A DNA stretch of 64,000 nt, taken from sequence record PQ351811; one strand, given 5' to 3'. Positions 962-61,839 of this stretch are shown here, piece after piece; positions within the stretch are counted from its first letter, which is position 1, and each line of letters opens with the position of its first letter. The position numbers were made by a program, and so were the translations under genes. The notes beneath the pieces are model-generated. The model saw only the letters and a list, made by a program, of their open reading frames with translations. It was not told the DNA's origin and did no database searches. The stretch comes from Shigella phage SSG23.

Positions 962-1007
962 ACACCCATCGAAACGAAACACACTTTCTTAAACGGAGAA
1001 TCAAATT

Positions 1008-2679: not shown

Positions 2680-2697
2680 CTGTGTGAGGATTATATT

Positions 2698-3018
2698 ATG
2701 AGCAAACTGTTTGAAACTCCGCGCGAAATTCTGATTGATAAACTGAAAGAGCGTGGTTTTAAGATCAAAGATGCAACCAAATACAGCAGAATTGATGAAA
2801 TTAAGTTGCATTCTCTTGATGAACTGGTAGAATATGTTGCGGCAGTGGCTGATCCGCAGTTTGATGTTATTGTAGGTGACGTTGAATATCTCGATAATGT
2901 ATATTCATTCTTCACTTATGGTAAAATTGTGTCTGTGAAAATTTCATTCTGTGAAAATGTGGAGGTACTTGCTAGTGAACCAGAAGAACCAACTAACAAC
3001 GGTCCTACGGCAGCGTAA
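2698..3018 (+). CDS. hypothetical protein
   Basis: Track ORF preceded by GAGGATTATATTATG initiation cassette. Confidence 0.55.
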   Translation: MSKLFETPREILIDKLKERGFKIKDATKYSRIDEIKLHSLDELVEYVAAVADPQFDVIVGDVEYLDNVYSFFTYGKIVSVKISFCENVEVLASEPEEPTNNGPTAA

Positions 3019-7050: not shown

Positions 7051-7079
7051 TTGACAGCATGAAACGGGGGTAGTAATAT
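7051..7079 (+). promoter_or_regulatory. sigma70-like early promoter (PeSL-like cassette)
   Basis: TTGACA-17-TAATAT with inverted repeat GGGGGTA/TACCCCC; conserved CATCGAAAC leader. Confidence 0.65.
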
Positions 7080-7110
7080 ACCCCCATCGAAACAACAACG
7101 GAGTATTAAA

Positions 7111-7449
7111 ATGAGTGTTAAAGAAGTGTTTGTTTATACCGACTATGACGGGTGCGCCTATATCACCGCCGGAAAACTTTACCGATGTGAAATTATTCAT
7201 GGTACATTAGGTCGAATTATGTGCGATCCGGTTACAAAATTGTGGAAAAGCAATCCTAGTGAGCGAGAAACTCTTATTAACCTAGATCCAGACGGTTGTT
7301 CACATTTGGACTATAGAAAATGGCATATCGTGACACATGATGCTTATGGTATTCATCTTGCTACTAAAGAATTAACTATAGAGAAATTCAAGTTTAAAGA
7401 AATCCCGTTTGTATACTGGCTTCGCAATTTGTTCAAGAAAGGAGAATAA
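7111..7449 (+). CDS. small protein, tandem paralog 3
   Basis: Track ORF after promoter; GKLY....DPDGCSHLDYRKW resembles paralogs 1 and 2. Confidence 0.55.
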   Translation: MSVKEVFVYTDYDGCAYITAGKLYRCEIIHGTLGRIMCDPVTKLWKSNPSERETLINLDPDGCSHLDYRKWHIVTHDAYGIHLATKELTIEKFKFKEIPFVYWLRNLFKKGE

Positions 7450-7450
7450 A

Positions 7451-7873
7451 ATGGAAACAATTAATGTACATGTTCGTCGTAGCAAGCTGCGTCGATTCTT
7501 CGAAACTGAAATGCGCAAAACTAATGCACAGATCAAAGAAAAGTGCTTGAATGATGGTTACGGTGAGTATATTTTCATTCGCTTTAGTCCGCATATGATC
7601 GACCGTCTAACCGATCGTCATATCGATGAACATAAGACAATGGAACTATTCAATAAGGTAGAAACTCGTTTACCTGAGATCTTCAAGTTCTTGAAAATGG
7701 AAGACCGACCTAACCGACTAGAAATCACTGACGGTAACATGTGGATCGGGATGACAGTAGATCTAATCGAAGACGGTAAACCGTATTACGGGCTATGCTG
7801 CCGAATGATTATAGAGAATCCAAAGCGACTGGCGGGTAAAATGTCGGCGGTTGTTTTGAAAGTGGACCAATAA
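7451..7873 (+). CDS. regB: RegB-like site-specific endoribonuclease
   Basis: METINVHVRRSKLRRFFE..RLEITDGNMWIGMTV..CRMIIENPKRLAGK matches remembered T4 RegB; SD AAGGAG. Confidence 0.75.
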   Translation: METINVHVRRSKLRRFFETEMRKTNAQIKEKCLNDGYGEYIFIRFSPHMIDRLTDRHIDEHKTMELFNKVETRLPEIFKFLKMEDRPNRLEITDGNMWIGMTVDLIEDGKPYYGLCCRMIIENPKRLAGKMSAVVLKVDQ

Positions 7874-10695: not shown

Positions 10696-10703
10696 TATAA
10701 ATA
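10696..10703 (+). promoter_or_regulatory. T4-late-type promoter motif TATAAATA
   Basis: Exact TATAAATA 34 nt upstream of rI-like ORF, inside loop of CCCCAGATT/AATCTGGGG inverted repeat. Confidence 0.5.
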
Positions 10704-10736: not shown

Positions 10737-11039
10737 ATGTCATTTATTCGTAAAACTCTAACAGCGGCAATATGCTTGACTGCGGTCGGAAGTGTCAGTG
10801 CTGATCAATATGATCCAACTGGTGACTTTACTGATTATTTCGACGGTGCAATGATAGTATATGTAAACAAAATATCTCCTTCCATTGAAACCAGCCAGAA
10901 ATTTCATGCCCATATTATGAAGATGTATGCTCGTAGTAAATGTATGGATTCTAAGCAGTGTTTTATTATGGGGGAATATGCCGCAAAACAATTTGTTATG
11001 TTGTATAATGTGGAGAATCGAGAACATGAAATTCAGTGA
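10737..11039 (+). CDS. rI: RI-like periplasmic antiholin
   Basis: Signal/anchor sequence; C-terminal Y..S.C.DS.QC...GEYAAKQF resembles remembered T4 RI; adjacent to tk as in T4. Confidence 0.6.
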   Translation: MSFIRKTLTAAICLTAVGSVSADQYDPTGDFTDYFDGAMIVYVNKISPSIETSQKFHAHIMKMYARSKCMDSKQCFIMGEYAAKQFVMLYNVENREHEIQ

Positions 11040-11445: not shown

Positions 11446-13593
11446 ATGCCAGCAGAAATTAAAAACACTACAATTAACTCTCAAATTTGGCTTCCTCATA
11501 CTTTTGAATGTTCGATTGTTGCCGAGTCGGATGACCCGGAGAAAAGACGAAAAGGATATTTATGGAAAAAGAACGATAAGTTGATCACAATGACCGATGG
11601 TCCGTCTTTTCCGCTAAAGTCTGTTAAAGAGGAAGATAAAACAGGTTGGTCTGTTAATGTTCGTGGTTTTGCTCAAGATGATGAAAATCTTTCTGGCGAA
11701 TCCGTAGATATCGGTACGGAAAACTTCACCTTTGAACTTTTTGATAATCCATATGTGGAACATGTATACCCGCCTACGTCTTTTAATATTGGTGATGAAA
11801 TCAAGGCAAAGATTGTTTTTCGTAGTCATATCCAGCCTAATATTTCGGTTGACCTTTATTATAATGATGGTTTGGTTGATTCCGTTGACGGTGATCTGGG
11901 GTTAGACCATCGTGAATTTAAAATTGCAAAATTCGCGTGGCCTGAATTTTCCGGTACATATAAAATGGAATTGAGTGATGAACATGGTGAGGTTAAGTTT
12001 GTATATCCTTTCTATGCAAATATCACTGAAAATAAGGAAGTATTCAACGTACAAAAATATGCACCTGCCTATTTTACAGTAGAGGATGATGCACCGAATC
12101 AGGCGGAATATACTATTGTCCGATATCGACTAGAGCGCAATGATGGTAGTTTGGTTTATGAGTCTAAAGATAAGACTCTATACGTGACTAAACACGCTCA
12201 ACCGTCCGATGCTGGGGTTTATATTGCTTTTGTTCGTGCATATAAGGTTGTTAATGGACCTGGTGCTGGGACCGAATATGTGGATGGTGAAAAACATCGA
12301 TTCACAGTTAACGTAAAAGAAAACGAATTTTTTAGCCGTGATTTTAGTGCTATTGATTTTCGTTATCCTTCTGGGTCTACTGTAAACCTTGATATGCCAG
12401 TGATGCAAGCCGATAGCTCATGGAATCGTCATTATGGTATGCTTACTAACAACGTTTACTTTACGTGGATGCTTGGCGGTAAGAAACTACAAAGTAAAAA
12501 ATATGGTGATGAAGGATATGACCGAATCACATTATCTGGATTGCAATATGATAACAGCGTTGCGCTTCAATTGTTGGTTGCTCCTGCCAATCCAGCGGGT
12601 GAACAGGTGATTCCTAACGGTCGCCCATTATTTTATGATCGTCGTATGCTTGAGATTTATGATAAAGAGTATGATTATCGTAATATTGAAGTGGGTGAAC
12701 CGATTGTTCTCAAGATCGTAGATCCTGAACCGCCAGCTAGTGATGATCCTGAACAAACGCGAACTTTGGTTATCACCAAAAACGACGTTAAAGTAACGGA
12801 ACTTCCACTAGGTACTAAGGAATATAAGATCACCGACTCTGCGGACCGAGACCATAACGGCATCTGGGCGCATGAATATCGTGATAGTCCGAGTAAAGAT
12901 CCATTTAGTGCACATACTGATTTTGATATTGCTGGTCGTTCGACCTATCATGTTGAAGTAGTGCCGAATATGGAGTTTGACGGTCCTCATCCTGTGCAGG
13001 TGACGGAGGGTGATACCCTGACGCTAGAAGCAACCATGCTAAAACCGCCAGCCTCATATGTTCCGACTTATGAGTTTAGTAAAAACGGTGTTAAAATGGA
13101 AATGGAAGACCCAAGAAGTCCGATTTACCGTAAAGCAAACGTTACGCTAGAGGATGCTGGTGTTTATCGATTTGTTGCATTTGCTGATAAAAACAGCAAC
13201 GATGAACTAGATCCTGGCGAGATTGTCGGGTATACAAAATATGTTCAGGTTGTAGTTAATAAACGTCCTGTGCGACCGGATGAACCTAGACCGGAAGTTA
13301 AAATTGTTACTATGTTTAACGAGTTTAGCAAAGGTCGATTTAGTCCGTGTCCGTATTGGGTAATTGATGAGCTTGTCGAATTGATGGAAGACCCGCATGG
13401 CTGGATGGATAAACTTGAAGATTCTGTCTACTATGACTGGCAAATCACTATCTTTAATGAGTTCCTAAAAGGCAAGGATTTGTATCTTCAAGATTCGTGT
13501 AATGGTTACTGGGCGATTGTCCGCCAGAAGGATATGTCTATTGAAACTGGCTATGGTCGATTCAAACACTACTATACAAATGGACGTGAATAA
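11446..13593 (+). CDS. large Ig-like-domain protein (715 aa)
   Basis: Repeated Ig-like signatures DAGVYIAFVRAY and DAGVYRFVAFA; candidate virion decoration/adhesin-like protein. Confidence 0.65.
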   Translation: MPAEIKNTTINSQIWLPHTFECSIVAESDDPEKRRKGYLWKKNDKLITMTDGPSFPLKSVKEEDKTGWSVNVRGFAQDDENLSGESVDIGTENFTFELFDNPYVEHVYPPTSFNIGDEIKAKIVFRSHIQPNISVDLYYNDGLVDSVDGDLGLDHREFKIAKFAWPEFSGTYKMELSDEHGEVKFVYPFYANITENKEVFNVQKYAPAYFTVEDDAPNQAEYTIVRYRLERNDGSLVYESKDKTLYVTKHAQPSDAGVYIAFVRAYKVVNGPGAGTEYVDGEKHRFTVNVKENEFFSRDFSAIDFRYPSGSTVNLDMPVMQADSSWNRHYGMLTNNVYFTWMLGGKKLQSKKYGDEGYDRITLSGLQYDNSVALQLLVAPANPAGEQVIPNGRPLFYDRRMLEIYDKEYDYRNIEVGEPIVLKIVDPEPPASDDPEQTRTLVITKNDVKVTELPLGTKEYKITDSADRDHNGIWAHEYRDSPSKDPFSAHTDFDIAGRSTYHVEVVPNMEFDGPHPVQVTEGDTLTLEATMLKPPASYVPTYEFSKNGVKMEMEDPRSPIYRKANVTLEDAGVYRFVAFADKNSNDELDPGEIVGYTKYVQVVVNKRPVRPDEPRPEVKIVTMFNEFSKGRFSPCPYWVIDELVELMEDPHGWMDKLEDSVYYDWQITIFNEFLKGKDLYLQDSCNGYWAIVRQKDMSIETGYGRFKHYYTNGRE

Positions 13594-16110: not shown

Positions 16111-16401
16111 ATGACCACTGAACAATTAATCAAACATATCCGCAACATTATTTGGGATCTGTCTGGTGATAAAGAGGAACAAGCTGAACGCATTTTAGCT
16201 AAACTCTATAAGCGCCGTGACCGTGGAGTATCAGCAAAGAAAGTGGAAACTTTCAAAGAGTTATCTTTCATCGAAGCTAAAAGGGATGGATTGATTTATC
16301 AGTTGACAGATGGTTACTGGTGCTATGATAATACTCGTTATGACACAGCAACTGATGCATTAAAAGCATGTAATGACCATCTTCGCAAAACTACCATTTG
16401 A
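16111..16401 (+). CDS. hypothetical early protein
   Basis: Track ORF after promoter. Confidence 0.55.
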   Translation: MTTEQLIKHIRNIIWDLSGDKEEQAERILAKLYKRRDRGVSAKKVETFKELSFIEAKRDGLIYQLTDGYWCYDNTRYDTATDALKACNDHLRKTTI

Positions 16402-16411
16402 GGATTATATT

Positions 16412-16609
16412 ATGAAGGTTAAAACATTGGCTGATATGGATGAGATCGAGACTCAAGTACACGCGGCGTTAGTCGGTTATGAGTTCGGTCGATTCCTTAA
16501 TAAGTTCCATGATTATAAATGTTTAAATTGTGGTGCTCATAACGCAATTGGTGCTTGCTGTATTAATCCTGTTATAGTACCATATAAAAGAAATGAAACA
16601 GAAGAGTGA
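16412..16609 (+). CDS. hypothetical protein
   Basis: Track ORF 16373..16609, ATG 16412 after GAGGATTATATTATG cassette; Cys pairs. Confidence 0.5.
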   Translation: MKVKTLADMDEIETQVHAALVGYEFGRFLNKFHDYKCLNCGAHNAIGACCINPVIVPYKRNETEE

Positions 16610-18113: not shown

Positions 18114-18129
18114 AATCATAAAAAAGTTG

Positions 18130-18158
18130 TTGACAGGGGATCGCCGATCCCCTATACT
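18130..18158 (+). promoter_or_regulatory. sigma70-like early promoter (PeSL-like cassette)
   Basis: TTGACA then palindromic spacer GGGGATCGCCGATCCCC then TATACT; conserved leader. Confidence 0.7.
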
Positions 18159-18199
18159 ACACACATCAAAACGAAACACACTTTTTAAGGAGAATCAAA

Positions 18200-18478
18200 A
18201 TGAGCAACCTGTCTTTCGCTAAAGTAGAAATTTCTAAAACTCGCGGTGGCATCAAAATCAAAACTTCCAATATCACTTCCTGCCGTGGTTGCGACCAGTT
18301 TGCGCGTGACCTTGCTGTGAAGCTGGGTATGAAAACCTTTACGGTGGAGAGCGGATCTAACTGGACCACTCTGATTGTTACTGCCGCTTGGATCAATGGC
18401 GAGTATGTAGAAAAAGCATACTTTGACATTTTCTATGACTATGAAGAAAAATGCTTTTACGCACTGCAAGACATGTAA
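18200..18478 (+). CDS. hypothetical early protein
   Basis: Track ORF after promoter and AAGGAGAATCAAAATG. Confidence 0.55.
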   Translation: MSNLSFAKVEISKTRGGIKIKTSNITSCRGCDQFARDLAVKLGMKTFTVESGSNWTTLIVTAAWINGEYVEKAYFDIFYDYEEKCFYALQDM

Positions 18479-18834: not shown

Positions 18835-18868
18835 AGCCGCATCAAATGAACGATGTGAGGATTATATT

Positions 18869-19177
18869 ATGTTTATCTCTTCTGCTACTCCAGTTAAAGT
18901 TTATGGCGAAACTGTGTATCTTCCGGCTGGCTATCGCTATGTTATTGTTGACCGTTACGGTGTAGTATATGCTTTTAAAGGCCGTCCGGTTGAGATTGAT
19001 GCTGAATATTGTACATGGGGATATAAAGCCGCATACATGGATATTCCTGATCTTGGAGTGCGCTTAGGAAGATTTGATAATGATGTTAAACCATGCTTGA
19101 TTAAGTATGCATCCTATGGTAAAACTGTTAAACCAAATAGCGTCGGCTGGATTGATGACGGCGTTAACGTGAAATAA
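18869..19177 (+). CDS. hypothetical protein
   Basis: Track ORF after promoter and GAGGATTATATTATG cassette. Confidence 0.55.
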   Translation: MFISSATPVKVYGETVYLPAGYRYVIVDRYGVVYAFKGRPVEIDAEYCTWGYKAAYMDIPDLGVRLGRFDNDVKPCLIKYASYGKTVKPNSVGWIDDGVNVK

Positions 19178-22970: not shown

Positions 22971-23001
22971 ACTCCCATCTAAACAACGAGAGGATTATAT
23001 T

Positions 23002-24180
23002 ATGGCTAAATTCTTTGAAGGTCATTACTATGCATTCCGTGAAGGCGGTAAAGATGAGTTTCTAGACTTTTCTCGCTATTCAATTATTCTGACCGATGCT
23101 TCGCGCCGTGGTCATATTCGAGTTGCTGAAATCGTAGAAAAGGGCTTTAAAGTATTAGAAAAAGATGACCACGGTCATGTTATTACTATTGAAGCTGGAG
23201 ATGTAGTTTATTCCGCTGAGGATATCGTTTATTATTGGTCTACTATGATTATGCACAATGAGCGCAAATACTTTAAACGTATCTCAAAAGAGGCATACGA
23301 AGCGATGAACAAGAAAGAGGATGCAATGCCGACTTACTTTGAAAAAGGTAAATGTTATTCGTTTACCCCAGAAGGTTTGCAAGAATTTAAGCGATTCTGG
23401 GGAGAGCATGACCCAGAACACAAAGAAGCCATGAAACTTGCTGATTTTGTCGAATATGGCTTTTTGGTTGAAGAAGAATTGCACGGATCAGCTACCATGA
23501 TCACCGCGAAAGGTGAAACCGTTAAGGCAGATCGTTTTTGTGATCAATGGGCTTGTGTGTTTGACGGTGGCGAATTTGAATACTTCGCGGAAATCACCAA
23601 CCATCAATTTCATTCTATGCAAGCGGAAGGTCAGCGATTTAAAGTAGGCGAACGCTACAAGCCAAATCAGCATAATTTGCCTCATTGGTTTAACACTGAA
23701 ACCGTATCCAGCCATGTTATTGAAATTGTTCAAAAGCTGGAACATGGATTTAAGGTAACTAAAGTAGATCCTTTCGGAAGTGTTGACGCGGTTGAAGTTG
23801 ATGGTGTAGAATATACTCCCAAATCTTTCGGGCTTTGCTGGTATCATCTGATCAGCAATGATGAACGTTATAACTTTGTTGAACTGCCATCTGAACCGGA
23901 AGAAGCACTAGAGGATCATGATCATCTATCTGAACTGGTTAAGCTGTTTGGTGATCTGCCGGATGGTGTAGGGGTGGCGGTAATGGGTGAAGGTGCGGTT
24001 ATCCGAAACCTGAAAGACTTTAAAAAGTTCTTGATTGACATGCTGCCTAAACTTGATGATAATCTCGATACAGATATTCAGAATCGCAAAGAAATTGTTA
24101 AAGAGACTGAAAAAGAGATCGAAGCGATTCGAGCAATTCGCCAGAAGGTGAAAGCAGTAAAGAAAAAAGTTCGTGCTTGA
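23002..24180 (+). CDS. paralog family B member (multi-module, 392 aa)
   Basis: Repeated GFKV..D..G.V...V.G..Y modules, NERKYFKRI, C-terminal LSELVKLFG..LKDFKKFL helical module. Confidence 0.6.
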   Translation: MAKFFEGHYYAFREGGKDEFLDFSRYSIILTDASRRGHIRVAEIVEKGFKVLEKDDHGHVITIEAGDVVYSAEDIVYYWSTMIMHNERKYFKRISKEAYEAMNKKEDAMPTYFEKGKCYSFTPEGLQEFKRFWGEHDPEHKEAMKLADFVEYGFLVEEELHGSATMITAKGETVKADRFCDQWACVFDGGEFEYFAEITNHQFHSMQAEGQRFKVGERYKPNQHNLPHWFNTETVSSHVIEIVQKLEHGFKVTKVDPFGSVDAVEVDGVEYTPKSFGLCWYHLISNDERYNFVELPSEPEEALEDHDHLSELVKLFGDLPDGVGVAVMGEGAVIRNLKDFKKFLIDMLPKLDDNLDTDIQNRKEIVKETEKEIEAIRAIRQKVKAVKKKVRA

Positions 24181-41728: not shown

Positions 41729-42091
41729 ATGATTGAAATTAATTTGATTAATCCTGAAAACTTCCTTAAAATTAAGGAGACTTTAACCCGCTGCGGCATT
41801 GCCAACAATCGAGACAAGACGCTGTATCAGTCTTGTCATATTCTCCAGAAGAAGGGGCGTTATTACATCGTTCATTTCAAGGAGTTGTTGAAATTAGATG
41901 GTCGTAGTGTTAAAATGACGTGGGAAGATGAATTACGCCGTAATAACATTGCAAAACTTCTTGCGCAGTGGAATCTATGCACCCTGATTGATAGTGATTT
42001 TGAAACTACCGAAGTTAATAATTTCCGCGTACTGTCTTTTAAACAGAAAGAAGAGTGGACGCTGATCGAGAAATATCAGATCGGACGCTAA
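41729..42091 (+). CDS. regA: translational repressor RegA
   Basis: KETLTRCGIANNRDKTLYQSCHILQKKGRYYIVHFKE..NNFRVLSFKQKEEW matches remembered T4 RegA. Confidence 0.88.
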   Translation: MIEINLINPENFLKIKETLTRCGIANNRDKTLYQSCHILQKKGRYYIVHFKELLKLDGRSVKMTWEDELRRNNIAKLLAQWNLCTLIDSDFETTEVNNFRVLSFKQKEEWTLIEKYQIGR

Positions 42092-58519: not shown

Positions 58520-58533
58520 GTGAGGATTATATT

Positions 58534-60642
58534 ATGAAAATGCATATTGATAATGAAGAAGTATTTGGCAGTGACCTGAGCGGTGCGGTTGATTTTTCAC
58601 TGAAAGCAAGTAGCAAGGCTTTTATGGTGCTTTCTAAGAACACATATCAATATTGTGAGCGTGCTTGCGTCCGTGAGTATTCGTGCAATGCTACCGACAC
58701 TCACAAAGAAGCCGGAACCTTAGATCGTCCGTTTGATATTCATTTGCCGACTGCAATCGAACCGTATTTCTCTGTACGTGATTATGGTACTGGTATTCCA
58801 TCTAAGAAAGAATTAGAACAACTGTTTACGGTTTACTTTGAATCAACCAAAGACCAGACTAATGACTATATCGGATCTTTTGGTTTGGGTGCGAAGTCTG
58901 CTTATAGCTACACCGACACCTTTACAATCGTGAACTATTACAATGGTCGCGCTTATGGCTTTACTGCATTCGTGCAAAACTCTATGCCGAAAATGGTGCA
59001 GATTTTCGACGAACCAACCTATGAAGACAATGGTCTGAAAATCACTATTCCGGTGAAAGAGAAAGATATTCAGACATGGCATCGAGAAGCACAATTTGTA
59101 CTGCGTCATTTTGGGGAACATAAACCGAATATCAACGCAATCGAAATTAATTATTTCCCTAGCTTTGATAATTATTATGTGTGTAATGGACGTGATAACG
59201 ATTCCTATGTGGTATATGCAATCATGGGTAAGATCCAGTATCCGATCCCGTATGAATATGTTCGCGGAACATGGTTAGAAGCTGTAAACCGCCAGCACCA
59301 GACCATTTACATTAATTTTGAGTTGGGTGATCTGGACCTGATGCCATCGCGTGAAGAAGTTCACTTGTCAATTGAGACTAAAGCGAACATCGAAAAACGT
59401 ATTGCAGAAATCAATGAAATGATGTTGGAAAAGGTTAAAGAGAAGATCGCCAGCATTGAAACGGAGCGTAAACTCGCGCAATTTATGAGCGAGTATTCAT
59501 CGACTCAACGCAATATTATTAGCAAGATGGGTAAGATCGGACAATGGGACGATCCGGTAGCAATCTATAACAAGTTTGTAAATGCTGGTAAAGATTCGCC
59601 TAATGACGTAGAAGGTCAAGTGTATACTCTGTATCGTACTCGACACACAATCAGCAAATTGCGCCCTGCTTTCGTTAGCAGTCAATACAACATTACGCAC
59701 TTTGTATGGATTCATAAAGAAGATATTCTATGTGTAATTGATGATACGGATAAACCGAAACTGCGTGCACTGACTCTTAACGGCATGGTCCAGGAATACG
59801 GCATCAATAAAAAGGTACTGGTGTTCCGTCAGAGCAACGAAAAACACATGGAGACTTTCGAGTACATCAAACAGTATTATGATGAATCGGAAATGACCGT
59901 GATTAAGGTATCCGAGGCCGATGATCTGCGTGCTAAAGCAGTTAAGCCGGAGAAGACCGAACGTGCACAGCGTGAAGCTACTCCTAAGCTGCCTAACGTG
60001 TATATCATGGAAAAGATTGGTGACAGTTGGCATAAAACCAGCCATCATATGAAAGCGGCAGAGATTCGCGAGTTATCAGGCTTGCACATGTTCCGCGTGG
60101 GTGATGCATTCGAAAGCCGTAGCCGTCAATCGATCTATAGTGAAGATACCTTACACACGGCGCTTGACTACTTCGGGGTAACAAAGTATATTATTACCAG
60201 AAACGAGACACAAAAATATCTCGTTGACGAACAACTGGAATGCGCGCTAGAATTTGTTCGCGGTAAGCTGGCTGGTCTGGCTAAGAAGGTTAAGACCAAT
60301 CATCTGGGGTATGGCGAATATCTGGGTGTGATCACTATGTTGTTTCATGACGATGAATTAGAACGCTGTATTCCAGAATTTATTGACAGACTCTATGGTC
60401 GTCATTATAATAAAGAGGTTTCCAAGTTGCTCCTTCGTACTCGTTGGATTATGGACGAAGAAACTAAGAAGATCTGCGATGAAAAATTCACGGCAGCAAA
60501 CGAACGAATTAAAGCAGTTTGTGCGAAGTTTAAAGAGAATAGCCCGTTACTGTATGATATTGTAGATAACTGGTATCGTATTCTGCATAATGACAAACGC
60601 GCACAAGACTTTATGAAACTGGTTAAGAATGTTAAATTTTAA
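58534..60642 (+). CDS. rIIA: rIIA protein (GHKL-type ATPase fold N-terminus)
   Basis: 702 aa; DYGTGIP and GSFGLGAKS ATP-lid motifs; precedes rIIB as in T4. Confidence 0.8.
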   Translation: MKMHIDNEEVFGSDLSGAVDFSLKASSKAFMVLSKNTYQYCERACVREYSCNATDTHKEAGTLDRPFDIHLPTAIEPYFSVRDYGTGIPSKKELEQLFTVYFESTKDQTNDYIGSFGLGAKSAYSYTDTFTIVNYYNGRAYGFTAFVQNSMPKMVQIFDEPTYEDNGLKITIPVKEKDIQTWHREAQFVLRHFGEHKPNINAIEINYFPSFDNYYVCNGRDNDSYVVYAIMGKIQYPIPYEYVRGTWLEAVNRQHQTIYINFELGDLDLMPSREEVHLSIETKANIEKRIAEINEMMLEKVKEKIASIETERKLAQFMSEYSSTQRNIISKMGKIGQWDDPVAIYNKFVNAGKDSPNDVEGQVYTLYRTRHTISKLRPAFVSSQYNITHFVWIHKEDILCVIDDTDKPKLRALTLNGMVQEYGINKKVLVFRQSNEKHMETFEYIKQYYDESEMTVIKVSEADDLRAKAVKPEKTERAQREATPKLPNVYIMEKIGDSWHKTSHHMKAAEIRELSGLHMFRVGDAFESRSRQSIYSEDTLHTALDYFGVTKYIITRNETQKYLVDEQLECALEFVRGKLAGLAKKVKTNHLGYGEYLGVITMLFHDDELERCIPEFIDRLYGRHYNKEVSKLLLRTRWIMDEETKKICDEKFTAANERIKAVCAKFKENSPLLYDIVDNWYRILHNDKRAQDFMKLVKNVKF

Positions 60643-60785: not shown

Positions 60786-60846
60786 TTCTGGTATAATGAT
60801 GTGAATCGGGCGGCGATAGTCGCCCACTAATAGAGGAATGAATACT

Positions 60847-61839
60847 ATGACTAAAGCAAAAATCACCGTCTCTGACCGTAACGTTCAATGCCTGGACTCT
60901 GCGAAACAAATCAAACTGGCTAAACAGTGGGGCGAAGGTAAGTTTACTACCCGCGAAGCACTTGCGGCAGCATTTGGTGTATCTCGTCGCACTGCCTCCC
61001 GTGTATTACTGATTCAGAAAGACGCAGTAGCGGAAGGTCGCAAGGCACTGGAAAACCGTAAAGCACGCCGTAAAACCAGTAAAGGAAAAGGCGGTGAACG
61101 CGCAAAAAAGCCCGTGACTACTTCCTCAAAAATCGTAGCAATAGCCTCATCTAAATTCATTACTATTACATGTGGTGACATTGTTTATACTGCTGACCCA
61201 TCACATGTTAACTTTAATGAAGCACTGGAAGCGATTAAACAAAATGATTTCATCAAAGCTATTACGCTGATTGACATTAAGAAAGCGGTTGAAGTATATT
61301 ATCACGGCGCTTTCCGTATCGAAAATGGCATTGTGTATTATCATAATATTGTTCTTGATAATAATCTGACTCGTCGAGTTGTTGAGTCGATTAAAGAGAA
61401 TAAGCCATATACGCACTATCTGAACTTCTTTGAGAAGTGCAAGAAAAACCCTAGCCGTAAGGCGGTAGATCGTCTGTTTGACTTCTTAGAGCACAACGAC
61501 ATTGAGATCGGGGAAGATGGTTGTTTCTATGCATGGAAACGTGTTGATGTTGATTATAAAGATTTCTTTACGCATACGTTTGATAATAGCCCAGGGCGCA
61601 CGGTTAAAATGAAGCGTAAAGACGTGGACCCAGATGATGACCGCACTTGCTCTAATGGCCTCCATGTTGCAGCGAAACACTACATTCCGCACTATGGCGG
61701 TGGACGAGGCCGAATCATTAAATGCAAAGTTGATCCGCGTCACGTTGTAAGTATTCCGAAAGATTATGCGAATGCCAAAATGCGCTGTCATCGTTACTAT
61801 GTGGTTGAAGATGTAACCGAAGGTTTTAGCCATTACTAA
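60847..61839 (+). CDS. rIIB: rIIB protein
   Basis: SKKAVDRLFDFLEHNDIEI..DGCFYAWK..NGLHVAAKHYIPHYGG..PRHVVSIPKDYANAKMR matches remembered T4 rIIB; ATG 60847 after GAGG. Confidence 0.88.
   Translation: MTKAKITVSDRNVQCLDSAKQIKLAKQWGEGKFTTREALAAAFGVSRRTASRVLLIQKDAVAEGRKALENRKARRKTSKGKGGERAKKPVTTSSKIVAIASSKFITITCGDIVYTADPSHVNFNEALEAIKQNDFIKAITLIDIKKAVEVYYHGAFRIENGIVYYHNIVLDNNLTRRVVESIKENKPYTHYLNFFEKCKKNPSRKAVDRLFDFLEHNDIEIGEDGCFYAWKRVDVDYKDFFTHTFDNSPGRTVKMKRKDVDPDDDRTCSNGLHVAAKHYIPHYGGGRGRIIKCKVDPRHVVSIPKDYANAKMRCHRYYVVEDVTEGFSHY

Follow-up and report, generated by a model that had tools for sequence, protein, structure and literature searches.

Does the endoribonuclease RegB of T4-type phages sort early messages by the sequence of their ribosome-binding sites? 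The question is raised by a 64,000-nucleotide (nt) stretch of Shigella phage SSG23 (record PQ351811), here called the window, in which a regB gene (7451-7873, + strand) stands among genes some of which carry one of two stereotyped leaders: a GGAG Shine-Dalgarno (SD) sequence followed by an A-rich block (class 1), or a 15-mer that contains GGAU (class 2). A preliminary description of this DNA had predicted a built-in switch, with RegB inactivating the GGAG leaders behind early promoters and sparing the 15-mer. On balance we consider it probable that the T4 RegB model can be transplanted to this phage: together with ribosomal protein S1, RegB would remove the SDs of early ORFans driven by promoter cassettes as well as its own SD, and leaders lacking a particular 11-nt context, class 2 included, would persist. 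The discriminating feature appears to be this 11-nt context and not GGAG alone, and the proposed switch, although plausible, for the most part restates the established T4 model, in which RegB inactivates early mRNAs at their SDs, with no new principle.

The window is 100% identical to positions 35342-99341 of Shigella phage SFHK24 (PQ351812.1), a Krischvirus of the RB49-like T4 type, and holds about 128 annotated genes, all but two of them on the + strand. It corresponds to the prereplicative region, with many small ORFans and, under names taken from the RB49 record, nrdD/G, 55, 47, 46, 45, 44, 62, regA, 43, uvsX, 41, 61, dda, 39 and rIIA/B. Leaders were counted on the full SFHK24 genome with its annotation (229 + strand genes and 52 - strand genes, the latter late and structural), which is the scope of the counts below unless the window is named. 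Genes starting 15-75 nt behind an intergenic sigma70-type promoter were taken as promoter-proximal; there are 48 of them, against 181 other + strand genes.

Class-1 leaders and the RegB/S1 site

Cleavage by RegB between the G and the A of GGAG, stimulated by S1 and leaving 5'-OH ends, is reported for T4, and the review PMC3014915 reports it in vivo for the SD of RB49 regB itself. T4 RegB alone recognises only GGA, and stimulation by S1 needs the 7 nt downstream (Durand et al. 2006, PMC1702504). What RegB/S1 cuts efficiently is an 11-mer, GGAGRAYARAA, whose optimal form in T4 is GGAGAAUAAAA, and at position 8 both the T4 sites and those obtained by in vitro selection (SELEX) strongly prefer A (PMC1702504). 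Among 68 intergenic GGAG sites in T4, 24-26 are cut and 42 are resistant; GGAU is a documented rare target and the best-tolerated variant, cut at 2 of 30 intergenic sites and only before a strict A-rich consensus (PMC1702504).

The window holds 9 copies of the core GGAGAATCAA, where chance would give 0.19, and each of them is on the + strand with a start codon directly downstream; a 16-mer quoted earlier for the GGAG leaders is found in its exact form only twice. With at most one mismatch the full block GGAGAATCAAA precedes 26 of the 229 + strand genes and none of the 52 - strand genes, and it is concentrated behind promoters (24 of 48 promoter-proximal genes vs 2 of 181 others; Fisher p=4e-17). 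It is present in 19 identical copies in the genome. The block consists of GGAG and exactly seven further bases and matches GGAGRAYARAA at 10 of 11 positions, the exception being an invariant C at position 8. When promoter-proximal leaders are aligned on GGAG, 0.6-1.35 bits per position are found exactly at positions 5-11 (AATCAAA), with little information just upstream or past position 11, and the 40 non-proximal GGAG leaders hold essentially none at positions 5-11. All sites of the window that come close to the consensus, keep GGAG intact and lie on the mRNA strand are placed at start codons. The genes concerned are short ORFans, with a median of 71 amino acids (aa) vs 142 aa for class-2 genes (p=1e-4), and in predicted folds the mean unpaired probability is modestly higher for class 1 than for other GGAG leaders (0.60 vs 0.49, p=0.02).

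Class-1 blocks of the window outside the regB operon include the following:

995..1005, + strand: GGAGAATCAAA, gene 1008, behind promoter P933
1250..1260, + strand: GGAGAATCAAA, gene 1261, behind promoter P1202
1949..1959, + strand: GGAGTATCAAA, gene 1960, behind promoter P1889
13690..13700, + strand: GGAGAACCAAA, gene 13701, behind promoter P13642
14943..14953, + strand: GGAGAATCAAA, gene 14955, behind promoter P14885
16099..16109, + strand: GGAGAATCAAA, gene 16111, behind promoter P16054
18189..18199, + strand: GGAGAATCAAA, gene 18200, behind promoter P18130
22079..22089, + strand: GGAGAATCAAC, gene 22091, behind promoter P22031
27903..27913, + strand: GGAGAATCAAA, gene 27915, behind promoter P27844
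51774..51784, + strand: GGAGAATCAAT, gene 51786 (srd), behind promoter P51728
58046..58056, + strand: GGAGAATCAAA, gene 58057, with no intergenic promoter directly upstream

It had been claimed that almost all genes behind early promoter cassettes use a GGAG SD. The enrichment is real (34 of 48 promoter-proximal genes vs 40 of 181 others, p=1e-9), but "almost all" is too strong, since within the window it holds for 14 of 23 promoter-proximal genes vs 23 of 103 others (Fisher p=6e-4). GGAG alone would be insufficient to define a target, because the genome has 48 further GGAG leaders without the A-rich context, and 42 of the 68 T4 sites are resistant. The class-1 block and the T4 RegB/S1 site share their 11-nt length and their place in the translation-initiation regions of early genes; they differ at position 8, and the class-1 block is stereotyped, as part of a repeated cassette, whereas the T4 site is a degenerate consensus.

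The cassettes in question are of the mobile PeSL (promoter-early-stem-loop) type described in RB49 and phi1 (Arbiol et al. 2010, PMC2839356; Comeau et al. 2014, PMC4122927). In these, AT-rich DNA precedes a sigma70 promoter of consensus sequence, a G+C stem-loop lies over the promoter boxes or between them, and a small ORFan follows with its SD and ATG. The promoters of the window share this anatomy, with AT-rich sequence upstream and the SD and ATG at the 3' end, and about 23 of them are PeSL-type, repeated in the hyperplastic early regions. The class-1 block GGAGAATCAAA is the 3' end of these known cassettes.

The regB gene, its operon and its leader

The coding sequence of regB is the open reading frame (ORF) 7451-7873 on the + strand, with its ATG at 7451 and a stop codon ending at 7873, and encodes 140 aa. 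The coordinates of the preliminary description were exact, and the comparisons agree on the assignment. The product matches Pfam REGB_T4 (PF10715) with E=4.6e-48 and 163.5 bits (cutoff 27) in a full-length alignment of residues 5-137 to profile positions 4-148 of 148, PHROG 1323 "endoribonuclease" at 3.3e-50, and the T4 RegB structure PDB 2hx6 at 2e-25. It shares 96% amino-acid identity with RB49 RegB (AAQ15350), and PQ351812 annotates the ORF as "endoribonuclease". A tblastn search for RegB returned 1136 phage records, 58 of Krischvirus at >=95% identity and the rest below 60%.

His48 and Arg52 count as catalytic residues: the solved T4 structure is that of the H48A protein, and the R52L mutant is inactive. 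In the alignment, H48 of the product falls on the mutated A48 of 2hx6, R52 on R52 and E18 on T4 E19. H48 is kept in 7 of 7 lineages examined, and H48 and R52 are both conserved in all of them. A role of Glu19 in RegB is said to have been described by Odaert and colleagues in 2007. For His68, the review PMC3014915 cites Saida et al. 2003 as having proposed a catalytic role. This second histidine is missing from the present protein, its counterpart being Asn68 both here and in RB49, and the position is occupied by Gly, Ser or Lys in three genera (Gaprivervirus, Jiaodavirus and Kanagawavirus). Since position 68 varies across genera and the Asn68 enzyme of RB49 is reported to be active, His68 is not family-defining. 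On these comparisons the ORF can be identified as a Krischvirus (RB49-type) RegB endoribonuclease, a gene already annotated and partly characterised.

The gene is the second of an operon in which promoter P7051 is followed by ORF 7111-7449 and then regB. RB49 regB has the same neighbours, an ORF095-like gene upstream and vs.1 and vs downstream. The control elements of the operon are:

7051..7079, + strand: early sigma70-type promoter of a PeSL cassette (TTGACA-17-TAATAT), with the G+C stem GGGGGTA/TACCCCC overlapping the -10 box
7100..7110, + strand: leader of ORF 7111, a class-1 variant, GGAGTATTAAA
7441..7451, + strand: leader of regB, GGAGAATAAAA, with the stop codon TAA of the upstream ORF inside it

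Of all sites in the genome, only the regB leader GGAGAATAAAA agrees with the T4 RegB/S1 consensus at 11 of 11 positions. Its SD carries GGA(G/U) (GGAGAATAAAATG at 7441-7453), a feature kept in RB49 and in six other genera. The SD is GGAG here vs GGAU in RB49, which has GGATAATAAAA at the same position; in the review PMC3014915 the GGAU of this RB49 leader, GGAUAAUAAAA, is stated to be cut in vivo by RB49 RegB. GGAG is found in the six other genera sampled, mostly with A-rich 3' sides, and an Aeromonas phage has GGAGTGTTTTA. The leader GGAGAATAAAA is presumed, by analogy, to be an autoregulatory cleavage site of RegB.

Class-2 leaders

The 15-mer GAGGATTATATTATG occurs in 8 exact copies in the window, where none is expected, and in 11 genome-wide; with at most two mismatches the window holds 12 copies against 0.32 expected. 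With at most one mismatch it precedes 19 of the 229 + strand genes and none of the 52 - strand genes. The recurrence noted earlier is borne out, but not the count of at least nine, and the copies start 2-3 nt to the right of the positions first given:

2686..2700, + strand: GAGGATTATATTATG, gene 2698, where a gene module replaced relative to RB49 has its right-hand junction
16400..16414, + strand: class-2 leader of a gene whose true start is probably 16412 (16373 in the closest record, PQ351812)
18857..18871, + strand: class-2 leader of gene 18869, directly behind consensus early promoter P18806
22366..22380, + strand: class-2 leader of gene 22378 (goF-like, PHROG 8944)
22990..23004, + strand: class-2 leader of gene 23002 (frd.2 / goF-like), directly behind PeSL P22942
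24223..24237, + strand: class-2 leader of gene 24235, directly behind consensus promoter P24177
46228..46242, + strand: class-2 leader of gene 40, for the head vertex assembly chaperone, just past a hairpin that resembles a terminator
58522..58536, + strand: class-2 leader of rIIA

The 15-mer had been said to lack GGAG, which is true, but it contains GGAU, followed by UAUAUUA, and is not free of the RegB core. Set against GGAGRAYARAA, GGAUUAUAUUA has U at position 4 and mismatches, all of them U, at positions 5, 9 and 10, and the strict A-rich tract is absent; class 2 is predicted to be a resistant or weak RegB substrate under the T4 rules.

Class 2 is found before rIIA, gene 40 and frd.2/goF-like genes, outside the window before gene 1 (deoxynucleoside monophosphate (dNMP) kinase), cd and gene 2, and before several lineage-specific ORFans. 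A division of the two classes by promoter proximity does not hold cleanly: class 2 is slightly enriched behind early promoters (8 of 48 genes vs 11 of 181), and for three of the eight copies in the window (18857, 22990 and 24223) the element directly in front is a sigma70-type early promoter or a PeSL cassette. Class 2 is not a separate transcriptional class. Because it is enriched behind early promoters and not excluded from them, any switch would be purely post-transcriptional. The two leader classes are moreover two modes of a continuum, because the spacer ATATT, which stands before 30 of the 229 + strand starts, is also joined to GGAG in 5 cases, such as frd (GGAGATTATATTATG) and gene 43.

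Three other accounts of the 15-mer were rejected. As a late-gene leader it would be expected on the late strand, where none of the 52 genes carries it even at two mismatches or fewer and leaders show no stereotypy. It is not part of a longer repeat or of a paralogous N-terminus, since conservation stops at -13 and at the ATG. Nor does it mark promoter-distal ("delayed") genes, for which the mild enrichment behind promoters is the opposite of what would be seen. In the literature consulted, no description of the second stereotyped leader was found.

Every class-2 15-mer of the window recurs unchanged in RB49, whose equivalent region contains one more, a ninth copy; the 77-nt segment 17295-17371, at the start of gene 17295, matches RB49 twice, and the additional copy is explained by an extra small paralogous gene there that carries its own class-2 leader. 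For the coding sequence annotated at 16373-16609 in PQ351812, a start at 16412 gives a 65-aa product that matches PHROG 15013 end to end.

Probable exchange of leaders between cassettes

PeSL cassettes recombine between the -10 box and the ATG (PMC2839356). The cassettes of P22031 and P22942 (22025-23004), which by count on the alignment are about 83% identical through promoter, stem-loop and leader, end in different classes, P22031 in class 1 (GGAGAATCAAC) and P22942 in class 2 (GAGGATTATATT). Because cassettes so nearly identical carry different leaders, the leader appears to be an exchangeable module and not simply inherited with its cassette; the difference points to a recombinational swap of the last ~15 nt. 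A gene-module replacement lies at 2483-2682, where one membrane-like ORF of 66 aa stands here vs ORF111c and ORF110c (397 nt) in RB49. Homology to RB49 is lost just past the gene 2479 start codon and picks up again where gene 2698 has its class-2 leader, and because the breakpoints sit at these two places leaders would mark junctions of exchange.

The papers on PeSL cassettes (PMC2839356, PMC4122927) make no mention of RegB or of the sequence of the SD block, and in the literature consulted no relevant paper names both PeSL and RegB. The link between the PeSL 3' end and the RegB/S1 site, and the cassettes ending in GAGGATTATATT, are modest additions of the present analysis.

Transcriptional signals

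MotA-box middle promoters are represented in the window by a single match on the wrong strand (1.33 expected), and the late-promoter consensus TATAAATA by 2 matches against 5.4 expected. MotA-type middle or late promoters were rejected as an explanation of the leader classes on these counts, which are at or below expectation. Because no MotA-box promoters are found in the window, post-transcriptional control has room to matter there. RB49 is not known to carry motA or asiA. A search of the region for structured RNAs and tRNAs gave no Rfam or ARAGORN matches.

Favoured explanation and alternatives

Under the transplanted T4 model RegB would be made right after infection, as the product of the second gene of the PeSL early operon at P7051. 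By analogy with T4 and RB49, RegB and the host ribosomal protein S1 would cut single-stranded mRNA between the G and the A of GGA(G/U) ahead of an A-rich tract of about 7 nt. In this phage about half of the mobile PeSL cassettes carry such a tract at their 3' ends, in the form of the invariant block GGAGAAUCAAA that immediately precedes the AUG, and the short ORFans driven by them would undergo a burst of translation followed by inactivation through loss of the SD. The leader of regB itself (GGAGAAUAAAA) would make the enzyme self-limiting. Leaders of other context, that is, the stereotyped GAGGAUUAUAUUAUG and the many GGAG leaders without an A-rich 3' side, would be poor substrates and stay translatable. 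The present analysis shows what RegB is, that both motifs exist with the statistics given, how far conservation extends (11 nt) and that there is an association with cassettes. From this we infer that RegB/S1 of Krischvirus would cut GGAGAAUCAAA even with C in position 8 and leave class 2 alone, and that expression kinetics would differ as a result.

Several points weigh against this explanation. The C at position 8 of class 1 deviates from the T4 consensus, in which A is strongly preferred, and one T4 RNA that carries C at both position 8 and position 10 resisted cleavage (PMC1702504); Krischvirus RegB shares only ~41-45% identity with the T-even enzyme and may therefore have a different specificity. 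The class-2 spacer is invariant too, and an invariant spacer does not by itself speak for targeting by RegB; an A-rich spacer is also favoured by efficient translation. Class 2 contains GGAU, and a GGAU site is cut by RB49 RegB according to the review PMC3014915. Only 14 of the 23 promoter-proximal genes of the window use GGAG, and the difference in accessibility between class 1 and other GGAG leaders is small. Finally, RB49 has diverged by only about 5%, too little for purifying selection on the block to become visible: each class-2 15-mer and the majority of class-1 blocks are the same there, a comparison that has no test power at ~95% overall identity.

An unlikely alternative holds that the two leaders are unrelated to RegB and represent locally optimal or founder initiation sequences, an SD with an unstructured A/U-rich spacer, spread and homogenised across the plastic early region by recombination of PeSL cassettes and ORFans, with RegB perhaps cutting some of them incidentally. 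PeSL cassettes are known to end in SD and ATG and to recombine between -10 and ATG (PMC2839356), and the spacers are invariant in both classes, which occur on no strand but the early one (26 and 19 of 229 genes vs 0 and 0 of 52). The ATATT spacer that precedes 30 of 229 + strand starts, five times with GGAG, and the right junction of the RB49-relative module replacement at a class-2 leader are likewise what such spreading would leave behind. It fits less well that the class-1 block is exactly GGAG plus 7 nt, at 10/11 to the RegB/S1 site and with unconserved flanking bases, and that the SD of regB itself is a perfect consensus; the near-identical cassettes with different leaders argue for choice over hitch-hiking.

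In a second alternative, which we judge improbable and which is compatible with the transplanted T4 model, the class-2 sequence GAGGAUUAUAUUAUG is an operator-type site for RegA or another leader-binding factor; RegB would serve class 1 and RegA class 2, which would then not simply be spared. The window encodes the translational repressor, whose place in the annotation bears only on this alternative:

41729..42091, + strand: regA

RegA sites of T4 and RB69 are unstructured and A+U-rich and lie between SD and AUG or over the AUG, as in AAAUUAUGAUU, AAAAUUAUGUAC and the SELEX product ...UUGUUAUG... (PMC3014915). Class 2 resembles them in being A+U-rich, unstructured and placed between SD and AUG, the AUG included, and it shares AUUAUG with them; it is also confined to genes of the prereplicative strand, among them rIIA, gene 1 (dNMP kinase) and cd. 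These three genes are RegA-sensitive in T4. A RegA operator would also be expected to have a 5' poly(A) tract and to occur in the replication-gene regulon (44, 45, regA, rIIB and others). Against an operator role, the canonical RegA targets of this phage (genes 45, 44, 62, regA and dexA) lack the class-2 motif, class 2 has no 5' poly(A) tract, several of its genes are lineage-specific ORFans, and it is far more stereotyped than any known set of RegA operators.

That RegB cuts class 2 as well, at its GGAU, leaving general decay of early mRNA and no built-in switch, seems quite improbable: RegB alone recognises GGA, GGAU is the best-tolerated variant (PMC1702504) and the RB49 leader GGAUAAUAAAA is reported as cleaved in vivo in the review PMC3014915, but T4 GGAU is cut at only 2 of 30 intergenic sites and needs the strict A-rich consensus (PMC1702504), and class 2 has U at positions 5, 9 and 10, where a purine or A is required.

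Other features of the window

Some further observations concern gene starts and intergenic segments. Ahead of PeSL P933, the 277 nt at 731-1007 hold no + strand gene and contain hairpins as well as a stem that resembles a terminator, with a T run after it; there is no Rfam or tRNA match in this segment, and its sole annotation is a - strand ORF of 33 aa. The TTG-initiated ORF 18127-18222 (31 aa) of PQ351812, which overlaps the PeSL promoter P18130, is probably spurious.

On the + strand at 10737-11039, an ORF of 100 aa with a signal-peptide-like N-terminus corresponds to RB49 rI, the lysis-inhibition regulator. It is preceded at 10696 by TATAAATA, one of only two late-promoter consensuses in the window. 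The closest GenBank record omits it and annotates a - strand ORF at 10758-10913 instead. The start of its neighbour rI.-1 is probably 11026 (leader GGAGAATCGAGAACATG) and not 10927.

The 2.1-kb hypothetical gene at 11446-13593 (715 aa) is deleted in RB49, where ~90 nt of its 5' end and ~40 nt of its 3' end are left. RB49 also has, in the leader of gene 47 (34272), a 565-nt insertion with the HNH endonuclease ORF040c, which is absent here. For rIIB, the annotated ATG at 60838 is abutted by GAGGA, and translation may really begin at the in-frame ATG at 60847 (60838-60849).

Biological implications

The present reading extends the T4 RegB model to another genus, the gene, the target rules and the cassettes being already published. 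A broader proposal, which we regard as doubtful, starts from the lack of detectable MotA-box middle promoters in this prereplicative region: the ribosome-binding site itself would encode the temporal split among prereplicative genes. Each PeSL cassette would then act as a self-limiting module made of a promoter, an attenuator and an SD serving as RegB/S1 "kill-site", the last of which could be swapped by recombination for the RegB-resistant GAGGAUUAUAUUAUG to prolong translation, this being perhaps in turn an operator for RegA or another factor. If so, swapping ~15 nt alone would change the expression window of a gene. Should RegB indeed cut the cassette SD, the PeSL cassettes, which shuffle ORFans among T4-type phages, would deliver more than a promoter, namely a full temporal programme, on at infection and off within minutes. 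Phage engineers would then gain two compact tags, one of 11 nt ("early-only") and one of 15 nt ("persistent"), and it would be explained how newly acquired genes are kept from disturbing later development.

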